A DNA stretch of 64,000 nucleotides from Candidatus Falkowbacteria bacterium (GCA_016927685.1 JAFGMD010000021.1:21913-85912); one strand, 5' to 3'; shown: positions 6,345-62,707, counted from the stretch's first letter. The notes: a model not told the origin generated them from the sequence alone. Made by a program: numbers and translations.

Positions 6345-6419
6345 TCCGGGGTAGCGCAGTGGTAGCGCAGTTGGCTGTTAACCAATTGGTCGTGGGTTCG
6401 AATCCCACCCCCGGAGCCA
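6345..6419 (+). tRNA. tRNA-Asn (anticodon GTT)
   Basis: Manual fold: acceptor TCCGGGG/CCCCGGA, D-arm GCGC-AGTGGTA-GCGC, anticodon stem GTTGG/CCAAT with loop CTGTTAA (GTT), T-arm GTGGG-TTCGAAT-CCCAC, discriminator G and an encoded CCA. Confidence 0.85.
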
Positions 6420-14208: not shown

Positions 14209-14387
14209 CTATTCTTGACATTTTTATAATTATATGATAAGTTAAAAAATCAAAAAGAATTTTAAAGAGTGAAAGAGGGGAGTTGGGTGAGACGACATTC
14301 CAGATGTTCTTAATTGAACTACTGTGGGTCTGTCTCGCCCCCTTTCCCTGACTATTAGTTGTTGATGGTCAAGGAAAGGAGGCAAGA

Positions 14388-14624
14388 ATGAGCAAAAAAA
14401 ATGAAAAAAAGTGGTCACCATTAGACAATGGTACAAAGGTTAGAACAACTCGATCCAAGACAAAGAAAAAAGATTGGACTCCCGAGGCATGGAAAAGCCG
14501 AAAATGGAATGTCGAGGGCTCAATAACGGGCTACCACGATTCCCACGGCCTTTGCTACGAAGTAAAGCATGACGATGGAACACTTGGATGCTATGACCCA
14601 TCAGAACTGAAAGTCCTCGAGTAA
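14388..14624 (+). CDS. hypothetical small protein (possibly DUF2945-like)
   Basis: 78 aa with an RBS ggaaaggagg. The C-terminus YEVKHDDGTLGCYDPSELK is reminiscent of DUF2945; the match is weak. Confidence 0.3.
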   Translation: MSKKNEKKWSPLDNGTKVRTTRSKTKKKDWTPEAWKSRKWNVEGSITGYHDSHGLCYEVKHDDGTLGCYDPSELKVLE

Positions 14625-30009: not shown

Positions 30010-30948
30010 TTATTTTATCGCGAAAACGCGCGATTTACCTGCTCTTTTGGCTTTACGCATCAGCTCATTGGCCCTGCGCACTGCCCGAACCAGATTTTCT
30101 TCTTCTGGCGTATTGACCTGATAAAGGCCGGCCGAGAAGGAAATGGACTGCTCCTCGAATCCTCCTTCTTTGAGAGTGAAATCGCTGAAGTGCTCGAGAA
30201 TAGCATTCATTCTTTTTTGCATGATTTCAAGCGGCTGGCGCCAGATGACCACGAATTCGTCTCCGCCGACTCGGGCGAAAATGTCATCGCTGCGTAAAAG
30301 GCGTCGCAATTCGGAAACGAAAGCAATAAGCAGTTTGTCTCCGAATGCCTCCAGATGGCGCTTGTTGACCTGGCCGAATTCGTCCAAATCAATGTAAGCC
30401 ACTGAAACAGGCACATGCGGCGAGCGAAGTAGTTCGCTCTGCAGTTCTTTCATCTTCCATTCCAAGCCGCGACGATTCAAGATGCCGGTCAATGGATCGG
30501 TAAAGCGGAAGTTGTCTATGTTGGTCCGTTGGCGGAAGACCTCATCCAGGAACAAACCTACTGAACCTAGCATTTCTACCTGGCCCTGAGTAAAATTCCT
30601 GGCCTTGGTCGTATCATCGAGTGCCAGCAAAGCAACGATTTCGTCGCCGTCATGGATCGAAACATAGATGTCCCAGCCGATGCCACTGGTCGGATTTCTG
30701 ATAATCCTGTTGCTGAGGTCAAATCTGAATTCATGGCGCGAATCAAGCACGTCTGTGCCGATCTGCCCATGAATGCCCCTCAAGATAAATTCGTCCGTGT
30801 TGCCGCTATCCGCTCTGACAAAGATCGCCAAGCGGTTAACGTGCAGATCGATGGACAAATTCTTGAGCAAAACCTTCACGAACTCATGTATGCCTTTTGT
30901 TAGGGCGGCGATCAATTCTGTGATTCGACGATAATGGTCTGCAATCAT
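30010..30948 (-). CDS. GGDEF-domain diguanylate cyclase with an N-terminal sensor-like domain
   Basis: GGDEF signature (LTGILNRRGLE...AYIDLDEFGQVN...RVGGDEFVVI). GC is about 50-55% against about 33% in the surroundings. Confidence 0.8.
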   Translation of the reverse strand: MIADHYRRITELIAALTKGIHEFVKVLLKNLSIDLHVNRLAIFVRADSGNTDEFILRGIHGQIGTDVLDSRHEFRFDLSNRIIRNPTSGIGWDIYVSIHDGDEIVALLALDDTTKARNFTQGQVEMLGSVGLFLDEVFRQRTNIDNFRFTDPLTGILNRRGLEWKMKELQSELLRSPHVPVSVAYIDLDEFGQVNKRHLEAFGDKLLIAFVSELRRLLRSDDIFARVGGDEFVVIWRQPLEIMQKRMNAILEHFSDFTLKEGGFEEQSISFSAGLYQVNTPEEENLVRAVRRANELMRKAKRAGKSRVFAIK

Positions 30949-39279: not shown

Positions 39280-40363
39280 TTTTCCGCCAAAAACCGGAGG
39301 CGTAGCCAATTATTTATCTAATTTGAGCGAAAATTTGCCTCATGATAAAATAGTTGTTTTGGCTGATAAAAAAGTAGGGCAAAAGTTGCATCATGAAATA
39401 AAATATCAATTGATTAAAGTTGATTTGTTTTTTAAATATTTCTGGCCTCACTGGTTAAAATCTTACTTTGAGGCCAAGAAAGTAATTAATGAACATAAAA
39501 TTGAACAATTGATTATCAGTCATGTTATTCCTATGGGTTATGTTTGTTTAATGCTTAAATTGCCTTATTTTGTGATTTTACACGGTTATGACATTGTTTT
39601 GGCCAGAAGATCTGCCTGGAAAAGATATTGGCTTGAAAAAATATTGAATAAATCAGAGCATATTATTGTAAATAGTAATTTTACGAAAAATGAAGTTTTG
39701 ACTCTCGGTATTAAGGAAAACAAAATAACTATAGTTAATCCATGTCCTAATTTTGTTAAAATGCAAATAAATGAAACTGAAAGGCAAATCATTAAAAATG
39801 AATTAGATTTACATCATAAAAAAATATTATTATCAGTTGGCCGGCTTATTCCCAGAAAAGGTTTTGATAAAGTTATTGAAGCCTTGCCGCAAGTTATAAA
39901 ACAAATACCAAATTTAACTTACATGATTGTGGGTAACGGTTCTGATGATAAACGCCTAGAAAAAATAGCTCAAGATTTGGGCGTTCTCAAAAATATCACA
40001 ATTATCAAAGATGTGCCTGATACAAATTTGCCTGCTTATTATTCTTTGGCAGATATTTTCATTATGCCTTCCAGAATTATAAATAAAAGTGATGTTGAGG
40101 GGTTTGGCATTGTTTATTTGGAAGCAAATCTTTTAGGCAAACCAGTTATTGCTGGAAAAAGCGGGGGAGTAGAAGACGCTGTTATTGATAATCAAACTGG
40201 TCTATTAGTTGATCCGGAAGATGTAAATAGCATTGCTATAGCTATTATTAAATTATTTACTGATCAAAATTTAGCGAACACATTGGGTGTTCAGGGTAAA
40301 GAAAGGGTAGAAAAAGAATTTTGTTGGTCAAAACAAATTGGTAAAATAGAAAATTTATTGTAA
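39251..40363 (+). CDS. glycosyltransferase family 4 (GT-B, group 1)
   Basis: C-terminal GT4 motifs (SRIINKSDVEGFGIVYLEANLLGKPVIAGKSGGVEDAV). Confidence 0.7.
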   Translation: MKKSLLITIDFPPKTGGVANYLSNLSENLPHDKIVVLADKKVGQKLHHEIKYQLIKVDLFFKYFWPHWLKSYFEAKKVINEHKIEQLIISHVIPMGYVCLMLKLPYFVILHGYDIVLARRSAWKRYWLEKILNKSEHIIVNSNFTKNEVLTLGIKENKITIVNPCPNFVKMQINETERQIIKNELDLHHKKILLSVGRLIPRKGFDKVIEALPQVIKQIPNLTYMIVGNGSDDKRLEKIAQDLGVLKNITIIKDVPDTNLPAYYSLADIFIMPSRIINKSDVEGFGIVYLEANLLGKPVIAGKSGGVEDAVIDNQTGLLVDPEDVNSIAIAIIKLFTDQNLANTLGVQGKERVEKEFCWSKQIGKIENLL

Positions 40364-40400
40364 GTAAAAACCCCTTGATATTATCGCGGGGTTTTGGTGG

Positions 40401-40583
40401 CTATTTTTGCGTAAAAATGACGACAAGCGCAAATTTGTCTTCTTGATACTCACTTGATGTATAATGTGAAAATTCAACAGATGGAATTACCTGGAGAACT
40501 TTTTTGTCACTAGCTTTAAAAAAGCTGTCAAAACTTTTTTCTACTTTTTCAGCATCTCCCCTAAATATTTTGCATTTTGTCAT
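40401..40583 (-). CDS. Cse60-like small protein (copy 1)
   Basis: Exactly 60 aa. MTKCKIFRGDAEKVEKSFDSFF...VLQVIPSVEFSHYT...KFALVVIF aligns with my recollection of the Cse60 family (M.KVK.FD..HEKDLE...FL....IIDIKYQVS.......YCFSALIIF). Strong RBS aaggaggtag. Confidence 0.4.
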   Translation of the reverse strand: MTKCKIFRGDAEKVEKSFDSFFKASDKKVLQVIPSVEFSHYTSSEYQEDKFALVVIFTQK

Positions 40584-40664
40584 TTTCTACCTCCTTATTT
40601 TATTGATTTATTAATTTATCATAATATTTATATAATGTCAAGCAATCCCAAATTGAATATCATA

Positions 40665-40730
40665 ATGTTTAACATGTCAAAATATGGCGATTGGCAAAAA
40701 GGAATTGCCAAGATTGAAAATTTATTGTAA
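40665..40730 (+). pseudogene. chimeric 21-codon remnant: the 5' end of the downstream GT gene fused to the 3' end of the upstream GT gene
   Basis: MFNMSKYGDWQKGIA|KIENLL*. The first part matches the 40996 gene N-terminus (MFNMSKYSDWQKGIA) and the last part matches the 39251 gene C-terminus (GKIENLL*). It is followed by a copy of that gene's terminator. Confidence 0.5.
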
Positions 40731-40775
40731 ATATAAAAACCCCTAATATATTTAATCAGGGGTTTATAAATGGCC

Positions 40776-40937
40776 TTAATAAATAACTGTGATGATTAAA
40801 TGCTTTCGGTCATCTGGCAAGTCTCCCGTATAATTATAATATGATTGTACTACGTGAAGCGGTTTCTTATCGCGTAGAAACCTATTCAACTTATTCTGCA
40901 CTTCTTTAATCGGACCGTCAAATATACGACACTTCAT
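40776..40937 (-). CDS. Cse60-like small protein (copy 2, paralog)
   Basis: Manual translation gives MKCRIFDGPIKEVQNKLNRFLRDKKPLHVVQSYYNYTGDLPDDRKHLIITVIY (53 aa). Strong RBS aaaggaggtgaaaaaa. The N-terminus parallels copy 1 (M.KC.IF.G...V...). Confidence 0.35.
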   Translation of the reverse strand: MKCRIFDGPIKEVQNKLNRFLRDKKPLHVVQSYYNYTGDLPDDRKHLIITVIY

Positions 40938-40995
40938 TTTTTTCACCTCCTTTGCTATTTTTAAGTTATCACAGTACTTAATTTATGTCAATTTT

Positions 40996-42598: not shown

Positions 42599-43468
42599 AT
42601 GGACTTATCAATAATTATAGTAAGCTGGAATGTAAAGGAGTTATTGGAAAAATGCTTAAAATCTATTTATGAAAAAACTCAAGGCATTGAGTTTGAAGTT
42701 GTTTTAATTGATAATGCCTCGAAAGATGGCTCCGCACAAATGGTTTTAACTAAATTCCCGCAAGTGATCTTAATCGCGTCCAATGAAAATCTTGGTTTTG
42801 CCAAAGCTAACAATTTGGCATTAGAACAAGCAAGCGGCAAATATGTTTTATTCATGAACCCGGATATGGAGCTAATAGAAAATTCATTTCCTAAATTAAT
42901 TGAATTGATGGATAAAGATCCCAAAATCGCTTTATCAACCTGTCAATTAATTTACCCTGATGGTTCAAAACAAAATAATGTTAAGAATAATCCTAGACTT
43001 TGCGACCAGCTTTTAATACTTCTAAAACTTCATCATTTTTTTCAGCCTCAATGCTTAAAAAGATATTTAGCCAAAGATTTTGATTATGCCAAAGAACAAG
43101 AGGTTAAACAGATAATGGGTGCGTTTATGTTTGGCAGGGCAGATATAATAAAAGAAATGGAGGGATTTGATATTGATTATTTTTTATGGTGGGAAGATTT
43201 AGATTTATGTAAAAGAGTACAAGATGCCGGTTATAAAATTATTTATACTCCAATTACAAAAGTTATTCATTACGAGGCTAAGTCCTTTGAGCAGCAACAA
43301 AGTTTAGAAAAACAAATTAGGTTTAATAGGGGAATGAGATTGTATTTTAGAAAACATTTTGGTTTATTAGTTTATTGGTTAATTGGTTTATTTGGATTCA
43401 TAAGTTTAGGCCTAGCTTGGCTAAGCCAGATCCTTAAAATCAAGTCAAAACCACAGTCAAAAATTTAA
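42599..43468 (+). CDS. glycosyltransferase family 2
   Basis: LSIIIVSWN...IDNASKDGS...NLGFAKANN...FMNPDME...DEDLDLC, a typical GT2 N-terminus with DxD and ED motifs. Confidence 0.75.
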   Translation: MDLSIIIVSWNVKELLEKCLKSIYEKTQGIEFEVVLIDNASKDGSAQMVLTKFPQVILIASNENLGFAKANNLALEQASGKYVLFMNPDMELIENSFPKLIELMDKDPKIALSTCQLIYPDGSKQNNVKNNPRLCDQLLILLKLHHFFQPQCLKRYLAKDFDYAKEQEVKQIMGAFMFGRADIIKEMEGFDIDYFLWWEDLDLCKRVQDAGYKIIYTPITKVIHYEAKSFEQQQSLEKQIRFNRGMRLYFRKHFGLLVYWLIGLFGFISLGLAWLSQILKIKSKPQSKI

Positions 43469-43477
43469 AATAAAAAG

Positions 43478-44200
43478 CCCCACATTTTATGTGAGGCTGT
43501 AAATTCGCCGGTGAGGAGGTTGCTTGGCATCCAGATTACTCTGGACGAGCATAGAGTTCTCTTGGTGCTTGCCGAAGTGGACCCGAGAATCTATCCTCGC
43601 TTTGATATCCGAGTACTTTTCTATCGCAAGCCCTGACAAATTTCCCTGGACATCTCTGGCGGCATCGAAGTCCAGACACATACCGTGCATTTCTACGTTC
43701 GTCAACGTAGTTGAGCGTAGCCATTTGGCCTTGTAAAACCCCTGCACTAATACATGCCCAGAAAGCCACCCTCTCTCCTCCTCGATCTGTAATAAACATT
43801 AACAAACGAATAAAATAATGTCAAATAAAAAGCCCCACATTGCTGCAGGGCTGAATTTACAAATGATTGGAAGGGTTAGAACAGCATTGCTGAACAACAA
43901 TGCCGACGGCGACCAAATGGGTCTGCTCCTAACCTGACGTTTTTATAATGGCTCGGTCAGCGCCCTTTGTCCATCCAACCATTTACCTGATGGCAAGTCG
44001 TGGGAGAGGAAAGGCTTTGGAAAGAAAAGGCAGTTATTGCCCTTGCGTATTTCAACGCAAATTTCCTTCTTTTCTGCCCAGATGCTCTTGCCAGCTTACT
44101 AGGCAGTATTCCCACTTCAGGATTTGAATAATGATGATCGCTACCAAGGACAAAGCCCATGGGAGTGATGCTAATAAAATATCAAATGGATCAGTTTTTG
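43478..44200. other. GC-rich (about 48%) segment with no credible ORF; contains two terminator-like hairpins sharing the head aaaaagccccacatt
   Basis: Only short overlapping ORFs in several frames (43487..43747-, 43524..43736+, 43536..43805-, 43957..44160-) with implausible composition. aaaaagccccacattttatgtgaggct at 43475 and aaaaagccccacattgctgcagggct at 43831. Confidence 0.4.
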
Positions 44201-44207
44201 TCAACAT

Positions 44208-45761
44208 ATGAATATTCTCAAAAAAAATAAAATTCTCACCGTATTTTTACTGATTTTTTTAGTGGAAATGTTATCACTAATCAGTTTTAAAATTGCCTGG
44301 CTTTCGGGCTTATTTTTTGTTCTGATTTGTACTGGAGTATTTTTAATTACTTGGAAAAAATTAGAATATGGGATATATGTCGTTTTAACAGAATTAATAA
44401 TTGGATCGCAGGGGTATTTATTTTATCTGGTTTTACCTGGATTTAAAGCATCAATTCGCTTGGGAATTTTTCTAATTGTCTTTTTTGTCTGGCTGATAAA
44501 ATATTTGAAACCCAGGATTTTTCTCAATTTATTGAAAAGAGATGCACTTGTTCAAAATTTTATCTTGCTTTTAATTTTTGTCGCCTTCGGAACGATTAAT
44601 GGAATAATAAATAAAAATGGTTTGACTAATGTCTTTTTTGATGTAAATGGCTATTTGTATTTCGGTTTATTTTTCGCTTTTCTTGAAGTATTCAAATCAA
44701 TTGAGCAAATTAAAAAATTTTTAAAAATATTTATTGGCGCCATGATATATGAATGCACTAAGGTATTTTTAACTCTCTATTTATTTTCCCATGATTATTT
44801 CATTAATGCCTCTGATTTATTTTATCACTGGATTCGCGATACCCGAGTAGGGGAGATAACTTATGCCGGAGGCAATTTTTTTAGAATATTTTTTCAGTCG
44901 CAAATTTGGGCTTTGATAGGAATTTTTATTATTATTTGTTTAATAATTTGGGTGATGCAAAAAAAACCGCTCTGTCATCCAGAGCGTAGCGAAGGATCTA
45001 AGACATTGGGGGTTATAGATTCCTCACATTCGTTCGGAATGACAGAGCGGGTTTGGCTTTTTTTGCTGTTAACTATAATCCAAACATCAATTATAATTTC
45101 CTTTTCCCGCAGTTTCTGGGTTGGTGCTATAGCTGCTTTTATAATTTTACTTGGTTATCTAGTCTTTATTTATAAACCAGGATTTAAGATAATAAGCAAA
45201 ATAATTGGTATTTCTGCCAGCTCATTAATTTTAAGTATTTTTTTGGTTATTTTTATTGCCAATTTCCCCATTCCCAAACCATCATCAGAATTATCAGCGC
45301 AGTTAATCGGCGCCAGATTTTTATCCTTTTTTGGCGAAGCAGGAGTTTCTAGCCGTTGGAATGAATTGCCGTCGCTCCTGGAAAAAATAAAACAAAGCCC
45401 CGTATTTGGTTCTGGCCATGGCACAACCATAACTTTTAAATCTGAAGATCCTAGAATTAAAAATGAGCAAAACCCCGAGGGTTGGTATACAACTTATACT
45501 TTTGAATGGGGCTATTTAGACACGCTTATAGAGATAGGAATTCTAGGTTTGCTGGTATGTCTGGTATTTATCGGTCAAATCGCTTATATGGGCCTTAAAA
45601 CGCTTAAAAACAAGGAATATGGCCTGATTTCAGCCGGTTTACTGCTTGGCCTAGTTGCCATGTTAGTCACCCATATGTTTAGCCCTTATTTGAATCATCC
45701 CCTGGGAATAGGATATCTAATGCTGTGCGCCAGCATCTTTAAATCAAAGCCGTCAGATTAA
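44208..45761 (+). CDS. O-antigen ligase / Wzy-like polysaccharide polymerase family membrane protein, with an in-frame MITE insertion
   Basis: A multi-TM protein with a Wzy_C-like block (SFSRSFWVGAIAAFIILLGYLVF) and a large loop. Codons for ...KKPLCHPERSEGSKTLGVIDSSHSFGMTERVWLF... are contributed by the 84-bp palindromic element. Confidence 0.5.
   Translation: MNILKKNKILTVFLLIFLVEMLSLISFKIAWLSGLFFVLICTGVFLITWKKLEYGIYVVLTELIIGSQGYLFYLVLPGFKASIRLGIFLIVFFVWLIKYLKPRIFLNLLKRDALVQNFILLLIFVAFGTINGIINKNGLTNVFFDVNGYLYFGLFFAFLEVFKSIEQIKKFLKIFIGAMIYECTKVFLTLYLFSHDYFINASDLFYHWIRDTRVGEITYAGGNFFRIFFQSQIWALIGIFIIICLIIWVMQKKPLCHPERSEGSKTLGVIDSSHSFGMTERVWLFLLLTIIQTSIIISFSRSFWVGAIAAFIILLGYLVFIYKPGFKIISKIIGISASSLILSIFLVIFIANFPIPKPSSELSAQLIGARFLSFFGEAGVSSRWNELPSLLEKIKQSPVFGSGHGTTITFKSEDPRIKNEQNPEGWYTTYTFEWGYLDTLIEIGILGLLVCLVFIGQIAYMGLKTLKNKEYGLISAGLLLGLVAMLVTHMFSPYLNHPLGIGYLMLCASIFKSKPSD
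44967..45050. mobile_element. 84-bp MITE-like palindromic element with 12-bp perfect terminal inverted repeats
   Basis: ccgctctgtcat...atgacagagcgg. The arms (ccgctctgtcatccagagcgtagcgaaggatctaagacatt and ttatagattcctcacattcgttcggaatgacagagcgg) are joined by ggggg. It is in-frame inside the Wzy-like ORF. Confidence 0.6.
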
Positions 45762-48328: not shown

Positions 48329-48431
48329 AAACCGCTCCAACTGGGGCGGTTTTACTTTAAAATGTAGTGATTGACAAAAATATAATTTAATGATAAAATG
48401 TAAAAATATCATAAATAGGAGGAGGGATAAA

Positions 48432-48635
48432 ATGTCTGAAATGCAGGGAGGAAAAATGCTGAAAGCTGTGTCTCTGAAGAGCCAAACTAAAATAGGCATC
48501 TTGAAAAAAGGCGAAACAAAATGCCCATTTTGCGGAGATCAGATCTATTATCACCATGCAACTGAAGAAAAGGATGCAGAAGGCAGACAAATTATTGTCT
48601 GTACTGGCTGCTACAATAAGTATGTGGAAGTTTAA
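48432..48635 (+). CDS. small zinc-ribbon protein
   Basis: CPFCGD...CTGC, an RBS aggaggaggg and a terminator (aaaaccgccctccgcgacacggagagcggtttttt). The start was moved to ATG 48432. Confidence 0.4.
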   Translation: MSEMQGGKMLKAVSLKSQTKIGILKKGETKCPFCGDQIYYHHATEEKDAEGRQIIVCTGCYNKYVEV

Positions 48636-48678
48636 AATAAAAACCGCCCTCCGCGACACGGAGAGCGGTTTTTTCTTT

Positions 48679-55579: not shown

Positions 55580-55712
55580 ATATTATATTTTATCATAAAT
55601 TCATGCTTCTTTCAATAAATAAAAAGATCGCCTGCATAATTACGGACCTAACCCTCTAACCCCGGATTCAGCGAAAGCTGATACCGGGGTCTTTTTCTAT
55701 CCAAAAAATATT

Positions 55713-55742
55713 TTGACATATTCTTTTACTATTGCTAATATA
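55713..55742 (+). promoter_or_regulatory. sigma-70-like promoter (TTGACA -N18- TAATAT) driving the candidate ncRNA
   Basis: ttgaca at 55713-55718 and taatat at 55737-55742, with no ORF downstream. Confidence 0.45.
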
Positions 55743-55749
55743 TTTTTAC

Positions 55750-56113
55750 GAGGGAATATGTCTGTGAAAAATAGCTCGGTTTGCTAGCGACAAAGAGCGA
55801 AAAGGCCATCCAATTGAAATACGCATTAACACTATGTGGCAGAAATGTCAGGTGGATGCGTTCCTCATGAAAAAATTGTGGGGTGGTGCCATACCCTGCG
55901 TACTGCACTGAGCGAGGTGCGCGGGAGCAAACCTGCCCATGATGCCGAAACCCCCATGTTTCTCGTTTTGCGGGACCGCATGCCAACGGGAACCTAGGGC
56001 GGCTGTCGCCACGTGCCTAGTTATGGGACCGGAGAAAAAAGCTCTGTTTTTACAGACTACCTCAAGTCGTGCCCCGGCGAGTTATGTACAAACTTGCCGG
56101 GGCCTTTTTTATT
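55750..56113 (+). ncRNA. candidate structured ncRNA of about 360 nt (unclassified), GC-rich, bounded by a promoter and a strong intrinsic terminator
   Basis: No ORF longer than 25 codons on the plus strand. The only track ORF (55735..55986 minus) has an implausible composition. The terminator is ccccggcgag-TTATGTACAAA-cttgccgggg + ccttttttatt (56071-56113). No tmRNA, RNase P or SRP motifs were found. Confidence 0.3.
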
Positions 56114-56202
56114 GACAAAAAGAGTTATATTTGTTAAGCTGCCAATAATAACAGTGAGCTGACCTGGCATATAGGATGCTATGGGAACGGCTCGCCCCTC
56201 CA

Positions 56203-56245
56203 AGCCCCGCTTTCACTGATCATGATTGCGGGGCATTTTTTATTT
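56203..56245 (+). terminator. second plus-strand intrinsic terminator, ending a possible ~100-nt transcript that starts after the ttgaca at 56112
   Basis: ccccgc-TTTCACTGATCATGATT-gcgggg + cattttttattt. Confidence 0.4.
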
Positions 56246-56290
56246 AAAAATTAAAAAAGAAACGGATTTACCGCTTCTTTTTTGTTTTAT

Positions 56291-61321: not shown

Positions 61322-62707
61322 ATGAAGCTATTTGAAATTCTGAAAAATATCAAACATTATATCAGAGTCAAAGAGCCACAACATCGCCTAAGAAAAGGTC
61401 AGCACAACATTTTCATGTCTTTATATGAATTTTTGAAAAAGGGCATGACAATGGGTTATCTTATGCTGCCTAGCGGTGTCGGCAAAACCAATATTGCTAT
61501 TGAATTAGCAATAGCCGGTGACTTTAAAAAGGTATTATTTTTAGTGCCAACTGTCACGCTCGTTGATCAAACCAAGGAGCGATTCAGGAAATTTTCAAGT
61601 TTCACGGTTGATGTATTTACTGGGGCTCGCAAAAATATGTCCGAACAAATTACTGTTGCCACTTATCAATCGATACAAAGGCGGCATTTGCTGCCAGAGA
61701 AATTTGACCTTGTCATCTTTGATGAGGTGCATGAAGCTTTAAGTCCAGGCCGCCAAAACATCAGAAAACATTTTGGGCCAGAGACTATTCAAATCGGTTT
61801 AACTGCCTCTGATACTTATAACGAAACAAAGCAAGTTTCAAGTTATTTTCCGCTTATTGCTAAAATGACAATTGAAGAAGCGATTAAGCTTGGTATGCTT
61901 TGTCATGTTCAAAATTGGCTTGCGCAAACAAATATTGATATTTCGAAAATAACCAGACGTAGAGGTGACTATGATGTAAGGGAGCAGAAGCGCTATATTG
62001 ATGTATCTCGACGCAATAAGGCAGCGCTTGATATTTATAAGCGCTTCTTAAACGGTCAGACATGTTTAATAACATGTATAAATGTTAATCATGCTATAAA
62101 AGTTGCTCGGATATTTCAACGCTCTGGCATACCGAGTAAGGCAGTCTGGGGATCAACCCAAAAACATCTATTATCAAGAGCGGATTTAAGACAGCGATTG
62201 AGCGATTTTAAAACGGGTAAAATCAAAGTATTGACCACAGTCGATCTCGTTGATAAGGGGTTTGATAACACTCTTATCACTGCTTTGATTAATTTGCGTA
62301 TAACCAGTTCTGTTGTTAAGGCAACCCAGCGCGGAGGACGAGTTCTGCGACTTTTTAGTGAGGATGACAGAATACAGCCAATCGCCCAAAAAATGCTAAA
62401 AAAATTTCATGTCAAACTTGCTACTGTCGTTGATTTTCTTGATGAGTGTAAAAATCACACTTTCAGGCCAGTTCTTTTCAGTGATATTTTGGCACAAACC
62501 TACCGTTTACCAACGGAAATAGAACGTTCTATCAGTAATGGAACGCGAAAGGGAGAAGTTGATCTGTGGCCATCAGGTGGCCCAATCAAGATTAAATTAA
62601 TCACAAACGTAACTCAAATAGCCAAAATTACATCTAAATTAACCACTTATGTGAATTTACCAGTATCCGATGAGAGGGAAATTTTTTTCCTCCCAGTAAA
62701 ACGTTAA
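61322..62707 (+). CDS. SF2 helicase (DEAD/DEAH-box, ResIII-like N-terminal domain + helicase C domain)
   Basis: Motif I LPSGVGKT, motif II FDEVHE, motif III TAS, motif VI QRGGRVLR. The likely start is ATG 61322 (RBS aggagg), and an intrinsic terminator follows at 62717-62747. Confidence 0.65.
   Translation: MKLFEILKNIKHYIRVKEPQHRLRKGQHNIFMSLYEFLKKGMTMGYLMLPSGVGKTNIAIELAIAGDFKKVLFLVPTVTLVDQTKERFRKFSSFTVDVFTGARKNMSEQITVATYQSIQRRHLLPEKFDLVIFDEVHEALSPGRQNIRKHFGPETIQIGLTASDTYNETKQVSSYFPLIAKMTIEEAIKLGMLCHVQNWLAQTNIDISKITRRRGDYDVREQKRYIDVSRRNKAALDIYKRFLNGQTCLITCINVNHAIKVARIFQRSGIPSKAVWGSTQKHLLSRADLRQRLSDFKTGKIKVLTTVDLVDKGFDNTLITALINLRITSSVVKATQRGGRVLRLFSEDDRIQPIAQKMLKKFHVKLATVVDFLDECKNHTFRPVLFSDILAQTYRLPTEIERSISNGTRKGEVDLWPSGGPIKIKLITNVTQIAKITSKLTTYVNLPVSDEREIFFLPVKR

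Follow-up and report, generated by a model that had tools for sequence, protein, structure and literature searches.

Two tandem structured-RNA genes probably fill a GC-rich gap between the GT2 and Wzy-like genes of a Candidatus Falkowbacteria bacterium

We have analysed a GC-rich block of DNA within a stretch of 64,000 nucleotides from a Candidatus Falkowbacteria bacterium, hereafter the window. Judged from its sequence, the block probably consists of two independent genes for structured non-coding RNAs, units A and B, arranged in tandem on the minus strand and each provided with a strong predicted promoter and an intrinsic terminator. Unit B would represent a new RNA family and unit A an inserted cassette. 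Both would be transcribed, each from a promoter of the housekeeping type, within a putative promoter-to-terminator slot that has the GT2 gene, convergent with them, on one side and the divergent Wzy-like gene on the other. The gap extends from 43469 to 44207 and is flanked by GT2 (42599-43468, plus strand) and by a Wzy_C/O-antigen-ligase-like gene (44208-45761, plus strand). The two units are placed as follows.

43822..44171, minus strand: unit B, putative structured RNA of ~350 nt with a predicted start near 44170 (promoter, terminator, fold, homologues)
~43467..43789, minus strand: unit A, putative orphan structured RNA of ~320 nt with a predicted start near 43789 (promoter, terminator, fold)

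The GC content of the block is 45.2% over 43469-44207, with 200-nt windows peaking at 49.5%, compared with a window mean of 34.4% and 26-32% in the block's flanks. The earlier note on this DNA had given about 48%, which was slightly high, whereas the GC-rich block itself is real. The block belongs to the top 1% of 739-nt windows by GC (z = 2.6), the remainder of which is coding. Two of the 12 intergenic gaps exceed 40% GC, namely this block and 55580-56290, and the other gaps have 31-37%. An independent Logan assembly (L001) contains the same block sequence letter for letter, which rules out an artefact of the present assembly. The nearest relatives of the proteins encoded in the window come from Candidatus Falkowbacteria and other Parcubacteria MAGs. 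In AT-rich genomes, structured RNAs are known to stand out as long GC-rich intergenic regions (the GC-IGR approach, PMC6429828). Elsewhere in the window, a 312-aa ORF (30010-30948, minus strand) has 50% GC and a GC3 of 0.59, compared with 0.24-0.39 in all other genes checked, and is probably a recent foreign acquisition.

The promoters of this genome follow the consensus pattern TTGACA-N14-TGnTAnnnT, of which the window holds 10 full copies against 0.03 expected. Two of these head units A and B exactly, another two stand before the RNA-like units at 55.7-56.2 kb, and the remaining copies precede genes or small ORFs with a Shine-Dalgarno (SD) sequence. The predicted signals of the block are listed below.

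44176..44204, minus strand: unit B promoter, TTGACA at 44204-44199, 14-nt spacer and TGaTATTTT (extended -10)
43796..43824, minus strand: unit A promoter, TTGACA at 43824-43819, 14-nt spacer and TGtTAATGT, a full-consensus match
43852-43831, minus strand: unit B terminator, hairpin and T-run, with the T-tail at 43830-43822
43498-43476, minus strand: unit A terminator, hairpin and T-run, with the T-tail at 43475-43467
43814..43841, no strand assigned: direct repeat, proximal copy, comprising the 3' arm and T-tail of the unit B terminator
43459..43486, no strand assigned: direct repeat (family D2), distal copy, comprising the terminator 3' arm and T-tail and adjoining the GT2 stop codon

A gap of 3 nt separates the -35 hexamer of unit B from the Wzy start codon (44208), and the relatives carry the same promoter at the same position, adjoining the Wzy ATG. 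The unit A promoter begins directly behind the unit B T-tail. Terminator-like sites occur on the minus strand of the block only, and the two hairpins, as the earlier note had proposed, read as minus-strand terminators that close each unit. Their energies are -14.1 and -14.2 kcal/mol on the minus strand versus -10.7 and -8.5 kcal/mol on the plus strand, which makes them stabler on the minus strand by 3.4 and 5.7 kcal/mol, G.U pairs becoming C-A mismatches on the plus strand. The hairpins had also been described as sharing a motif. The repeat was indeed found (AAAAAGCCCCACATT at 43472-43486 and 43827-43841), 17 nt long in its exact part (blastn against the whole window, E = 0.005) and with its sites 3-4 nt to the left of where they had been placed. 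When mismatches are allowed, it is 28 nt long (89% identity), and its copies lie 355 nt apart. Both copies form the 3' arms of minus-strand terminator hairpins, and the last Ts of the proximal copy are the start of the unit A -35 hexamer.

We have then compared unit B with its homologues. On these comparative grounds, unit B is firmly placed in an undescribed, clade-restricted and modular family of predicted structured RNAs of 226-350 nt. The predicted fold of the window copy comprises three parts.

~44171-44136, minus strand: 5' hairpin (predicted fold)
~44121-43986, minus strand: middle domain (predicted fold)
43851..43992, minus strand: conserved 3' domain of ~130 nt (covariance model R1 and compensatory pairs)

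In the 3' domain, an outer helix (AAAUGGUUGG/CCAAUCAUUU) is predicted to enclose a helix formed by AGGUUAGG/CUAACC and two hairpins. The minimum free energy (MFE) of unit B compared with dinucleotide shuffles gave z = -3.0 for the minus strand and +0.2 for the plus strand. Homologues were found in the slot between the GT2 and Wzy-like genes of the relatives L100, L103, L082/L083 and L097/L098, and L101 holds a tail fragment only. Identity within the family is 53-96%, and 53-80% to the window copy. The homologues differ by many indels whose lengths are not divisible by three (1, 2, 4, 5, 8, 16... nt) and have no ORF in common.

Five sequences were aligned with MAFFT without structural input, and RNAalifold then predicted 61 pairs. 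Standard pairs filled 90.6% of the pair cells, compared with 37-48% when the partners were slid by 1-3 columns. The covariation check that had been proposed for homologous intergenic regions thereby returned 13 compensatory pairs, changed on both sides, among the five sequences, and none of 500 column shuffles matched the observed values. For the 3' domain alone, 83.5% of the cells were paired, with 6 compensatory pairs. This covariation is suggestive, not conclusive, as it comes from five related sequences (four to five of them distinct) and from a structure predicted on the same alignment. One-by-one MFE folds of each homologue gave the same domain layout; the 5' hairpin is absent in L082, the middle domain is replaced in L097 and the 3' domain is present in all. 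The covariance model R1, built on the 3' domain, scored 89-131 bits on the five copies.

The family was found in these relatives only. R1 detected nothing besides the five copies in 1.37 Mb of related CPR loci, the pattern-hit loci and L124/L125. A metagenome scan with the best-conserved 20-mer of unit B gave 10 matches, all by chance, and pattern scans of viral contigs for A, B and a further RNA family, X (see below), gave no real match. Among 80 loci of GTDB genomes reached through the DinB neighbourhood, none held unit A or B, the contig of the closest genome stopping 1.5 kb before the block. Unit B is also absent from the slot in L084, L085, L096 and L124, and hence is not essential to the clade.

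The block was also examined for coding potential. Its longest ORFs (86-89 aa) overlap, lie in several frames and are short and implausible, as the earlier note had said. They have no Pfam match and their codon-usage scores are non-genic, from -0.17 to 0.06 versus 0.12-0.45 for 20 genes of the window. Pfam searches of the ORFs and of six-frame read-through gave no match with E below 0.009 and none that approached the cut-offs, and tblastn of the relatives' PQ-loop proteins against all slot sequences left the block unmatched. The block thus behaves neither as a protein gene nor as a pseudogene, with no family similarity in any frame and no host-like codon usage. Several open frames are to be expected of a stop-poor, GC-rich RNA. 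An 87-aa ORF in unit A was called by the gene caller in the Logan contig. A word-indexed search of 5.8 billion proteins with it returned itself only, and phmmer against 1.84 billion representatives added two borderline hits (E ~ 1e-3) in proteins of 1700-2000 aa. We regard this called 87-aa protein as spurious.

Unit A is predicted to fold strongly. Its MFE is -118 kcal/mol, with z = -4.3 on the minus strand (none of 100 shuffles being as stable) and z = -2.6 on the plus strand. The fold is closed just before the terminator by pairing of GAGGAGG (43783-43777) with CCUCCUC (43519-43513). Type I toxin mRNAs such as hok and aapA1 hide their ribosome-binding site by pairing between the 5' and 3' parts, and unit A resembles them in being a predicted structured transcript of ~300 nt whose SD-like GAGGAGG pairs with CCUCCUC before the terminator. 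Unit A could accordingly be read as the mRNA of an orphan 77-aa protein starting at GTG 43769, perhaps SD-locked in the same manner. A GGAGG stands ~8 nt before this GTG, the 77-codon frame that it opens is called by the gene caller in the Logan contig, and the other small protein genes of the window likewise combine this promoter type with strong SD sequences. In the MFE fold, the SD is paired with a 3' anti-SD-like stretch, but this also buries it in the closing helix of unit A. Furthermore, the frame has no credible homologue in either protein library, and its codon score of -0.11 falls outside the 0.12-0.45 of window genes. Its GC1/2/3 of 0.59/0.52/0.36 is unlike that of any gene in the window, AlphaFold gave a low-confidence pLDDT of 58, and the same DNA also carries another open frame, of 86 codons. 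We thus consider a small-protein mRNA quite unlikely.

The type I toxin-antitoxin assignment was rejected for unit A, whose sole SD-preceded frame encodes a basic, Arg-rich product of 77 aa, not hydrophobic as such toxins are. Inside the unit, the plus strand has neither a promoter nor a terminator that could serve an antisense RNA. Unit A therefore differs from hok and aapA1 in having no short hydrophobic ORF, no detectable antisense RNA gene and no homologues.

A search with nhmmer in roughly 100 related loci found no homologue of unit A, and there was no blastn match in phages or plasmids, nor any by viral-contig patterns. As unit A has no homologue, its reading as an RNA rests on the anatomy of one sequence. 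We have considered several possible relationships. In L082/L102 the same position is taken by the X family; membership of A in that family was rejected since the alignment fails and the covariance model R2 misses A even at E = 10. A and B are not paralogues, having only the terminator arm in common, and their mutual complementarity is limited to imperfect inverted repeats of 16-17 nt at chance level (E about 0.6). Neither does unit A look like a MITE- or IS-derived element, being single-copy in the 64 kb and absent from roughly 100 related loci.

The location of unit A is more informative. Two copies of ATGTGGGGCTTTTTATTT flank the unit and its promoter (355 nt in all), which gives it the look of a cassette recently inserted behind the B terminator. 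The sequence past the unit A terminator and distal repeat (TTTTAAATTTTTGACTGTGG) corresponds by orthology to what follows the B terminator in L100/L103, which would represent the "empty site." Unit A may accordingly be a lineage-specific cassette of ~355 nt, promoter included, that inserted between the B terminator and GT2. This insertion would have duplicated the 3' half of the B terminator, or recombined with it, leaving copies at both ends. A repeat search found no inverted-repeat pair at the ends of unit A, and the direct repeats of 17-28 nt are longer than usual target duplications. In the closest relative (a contig of sample ERZ1426824 with a GT2 gene 85% identical), the gap at the position of the block is 726 nt. 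We provisionally regard unit A as an orphan structured RNA carried by an inserted cassette, as its sequence suggests.

Alternatively, the block, or at least unit A, could be non-functional foreign or decayed DNA, that is, a pseudogene remnant or captured junk. In keeping with this, A is an orphan of foreign-looking composition between direct repeats, and the slot is variable among relatives. For unit B, junk is excluded by its conservation with covariation. Unit A has a fold far stabler than shuffles, between a promoter that fits the host type perfectly and an equally perfect terminator, and GC-rich junk in a genome of 34% GC should drift to AT. No protein similarity appeared in any frame with stops ignored, nor any to the PQ-loop gene, whose slot looks ancestral, and at the DNA level phages, plasmids and viral contigs gave no match. 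Hence, we hold the junk explanation to be very unlikely. The decayed gene remnant suggested in the earlier note likewise found no backing in the search for remnants that it had proposed: read-through by Pfam in all frames and tblastn with PQ-loop proteins detected none, and no ORF had a credible homologue. Its other suggestion, a pair of structured non-coding RNAs, agrees with the promoters at both heads, the minus-strand folds that beat shuffles and the conservation of B with compensatory changes.

The surroundings of the block are conserved in relatives, in the order ribosomal protein genes, flippase, GT4, GT1, GT2, the slot and Wzy, usually followed by DinB or Fmt. Of nine loci, all but L096 have the -35 hexamer of the slot close to the Wzy ATG, at a distance of between a few and about twelve nt. 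In most loci the slot terminator directly adjoins the GT2 stop, and in L097 and L096 an extra 100-130 nt lies between them. The contents of the slot are as follows.

Window: units A and B
L082: X and B
L100, L103 and L097: B alone
L102: X
L082:2440-2715 and L102:1866-2150, minus strand: candidate RNA family X, a ~75% identical pair (z = -7.4)
L124, 10872-11116, minus strand: unrelated GC-rich putative RNA Y of ~215 nt (z = -3.15)
L084, 9830-9965, minus strand: putative hairpin RNA of ~110 nt
L085, 9644-9921, minus strand: PQ-loop/SemiSWEET-like gene (92-109 aa across L085 and L096)
L096, 11006-11335, minus strand: PQ-loop/SemiSWEET-like gene, with a promoter that is not next to the Wzy start

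In L124, L084, L085 and L096, the slot content is on the minus strand with its terminator on the GT2 side and, except in L096, its promoter by the Wzy start. The unit B terminator (AGCCCTGCAGCAATGTGGGGCTTTTTATTT; AGCCCTGCAG-CA-ATGTGGGGCTTTTTATTT) closely matches that of the PQ-loop gene in the L096 slot. In L082, X is placed between GT2 and B; in L102, it adjoins GT2. It is unrelated to unit A in spite of the same position. By sequence and predicted fold, X is a second new RNA family.

Two observations concern the GT2 side of the slot. In L102, in a situation resembling that of unit A, X is flanked by two ~85%-identical copies of the last ~39 nt of GT2 (1830-1868 and 2228-2266), which suggests an insertion or recombination that would have duplicated the 3' end of this gene. 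L097/L098 have an extra AT-rich stretch of ~85 nt between the B terminator and GT2 (L097:6871-6953). It is rich in ACAAAT/TACAAA/ATTTGTA motifs and is absent from the other B-bearing loci.

What is most unusual about the locus is that unrelated folded RNAs replace one another within a single promoter-to-terminator slot. One could propose that the GT2-Wzy gap is a fixed promoter-to-terminator landing pad in this Parcubacteria group, at which unrelated, GC-rich and highly folded RNA cassettes are gained, stacked and swapped. Insertion would then target the terminator and duplicate part of it. At present we consider such a landing pad unlikely.

The earlier note had called this neighbourhood a hotspot of foreign DNA, in line with the different slot contents of close relatives and with a palindromic insertion of 25 codons in the Wzy-like gene. 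The in-frame insertion lies at 44966-45049 (CHPERSEGSKTLGVIDSSHSFGMTERV), with inverted repeats (CGCTCTGTCAT/ATGACAGAGCG) at its edges, and a 79%-identical Wzy orthologue is without it. The label of MITE that it had been given was not confirmed, as the window holds one weak, partial look-alike (near 62120) and no multi-copy element emerged.

We have next considered a cis-regulatory role of the block, as leader, riboswitch or antisense RNA of the Wzy-like or GT2 genes. The B promoter abuts the Wzy start codon, its -35 hexamer being close to the ATG in all relatives, so that mutual interference between B and Wzy transcription is plausible and may occur. The units also converge on GT2. On the other hand, both point away from Wzy, have their own terminators and are followed by no same-strand ORF before GT2. 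The earlier proposal of a regulatory region for Wzy, in the sense of a leader or riboswitch, was dropped for this reason. A riboswitch or 5' leader lies upstream of an ORF on the same strand, and neither unit does. Duplex energies between B and the Wzy start region were no better than shuffles in five loci (z 0 to -1.3), and in relatives unrelated RNAs or a protein gene occupy the same slot beside the same Wzy and GT2. We therefore hold a cis-regulatory function to be highly improbable. A comparison of B with 56 gene starts in the window revealed nothing distinctive.

Units A and B might instead act in trans as folded RNAs, binding proteins or serving as scaffolds rather than as antisense RNAs or leaders. 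For unit B, we see a trans-acting folded RNA, e.g. protein-binding or scaffold, as a possibility of clearly less than even weight. It is suggested by the conservation of the helices and of a compact multi-domain fold, together with the lack of complementarity to the neighbouring gene start.

The comparison with known RNAs started from Rfam 15 (4227 models), which at the gathering threshold recognized in the whole window a tRNA-Asn at 6345 only. The scan of the block, which the earlier note had also proposed, matched no known family at E up to 10, giving noise only (<=20 bits against cut-offs of 60-82). In the relatives bearing B or X, a scan at E up to 0.1 returned only rli40, at 27.8 bits against a cut-off of 100. 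ARAGORN found the one tRNA-Asn (6345-6419) and no tRNA or tmRNA in the block, and neither the P4 consensus of RNase P nor the acceptor end of tmRNA was seen in the sequence when read by eye.

Both units have the predicted features of stand-alone small RNAs, with their own promoter upstream and an intrinsic terminator on the same strand. Like the GC-IGR candidates (Stav et al. 2019, PMC6429828), the block is intergenic DNA with a GC content far above that of the genome and with stable predicted folds, and unit B shares with them the presence of covarying helices. Unlike the motifs of that survey, the block matches no Rfam family, those motifs included; its host belongs to an uncultured Patescibacteria/CPR lineage, and the B family comes from five loci only. 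B is thus a new family of a known general kind, namely the GC-rich stand-alone structured RNA genes of an AT-rich genome (cf. PMC6429828).

Compared with the housekeeping RNAs (RNase P RNA, tmRNA, 6S RNA and SRP RNA), the units are likewise stand-alone, GC-rich relative to the genome and of comparable size (100-400 nt). They also have long-range closing helices, that of unit A joining both ends of the RNA. Unlike these RNAs, the block has no covariance-model match even at E = 10. The replacement of B by unrelated sequences in the slot of close relatives is not the behaviour of an essential RNA.

Another comparison is with raiA, OLE, ROOL, GOLLD and HEARO/omega RNA, large bacterial non-coding RNAs whose function is not known. 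The units resemble them in being multi-domain and highly structured, as predicted, and these RNAs too are often lineage-restricted. They differ in matching no Rfam family, in being smaller than OLE, ROOL and GOLLD, and in having no adjacent IscB, TnpB or other partner gene.

The other GC-rich non-coding gap of the window (55580-56290, 43% GC) lies between a gene for a 466-aa protein and ClpB. A full-consensus promoter at 55713 (plus strand) leads into a unit of ~360 nt with a terminator at 56072-56110, z = -4.0 and a long closing helix between its 5' and 3' parts. A second promoter at 56112 (plus strand) leads into a unit of ~100 nt with a terminator near 56240, and another terminator lies at ~55660-55700. 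Rfam at E up to 10 gave nothing usable for the 55.6-56.3 kb gap. At the corresponding position, L085 has a different closed RNA of ~330 nt. In the landing-pad reading, considered unlikely above, this gap would behave similarly.

Full-consensus promoters were also seen in front of small ORFs. In the 40.4-41.0 kb gap (40340-40991, minus strand), they precede two paralogous SD-preceded genes of ~55-61 aa. At 48371-48660 (plus strand), one precedes an SD-preceded gene for a Cys-rich protein of 75 aa (CxxC...CxxC) that starts near 48432. At 14215-14620 (plus strand), another precedes an SD-preceded ORF of 78 aa with its ATG near 14388 and a leader of ~140 nt that contains a GC-rich hairpin.

The genomes of CPR/Patescibacteria are tiny and tightly packed. 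In the present case, out of roughly 1 Mb of genome, ~0.7 kb would be given to two RNAs that are predicted to be strongly promoted and strongly folded. To our knowledge, almost nothing has been described of CPR non-coding RNAs beyond the universal ones. For annotation, the locus calls for caution, a gene caller having already placed a spurious protein of 87 aa inside unit A. Unit B, for which a model and an alignment exist, is a testable family. If expressed, the two units would be new classes of structured RNA from a little-explored part of the tree, and the locus would offer a concrete case for the gain and replacement of RNA genes. A landing pad, if true, would be an undescribed way to exchange expressed RNA genes and possibly a mobile RNA cassette family in CPR. 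The turnover of slot RNAs deserves a wider survey.
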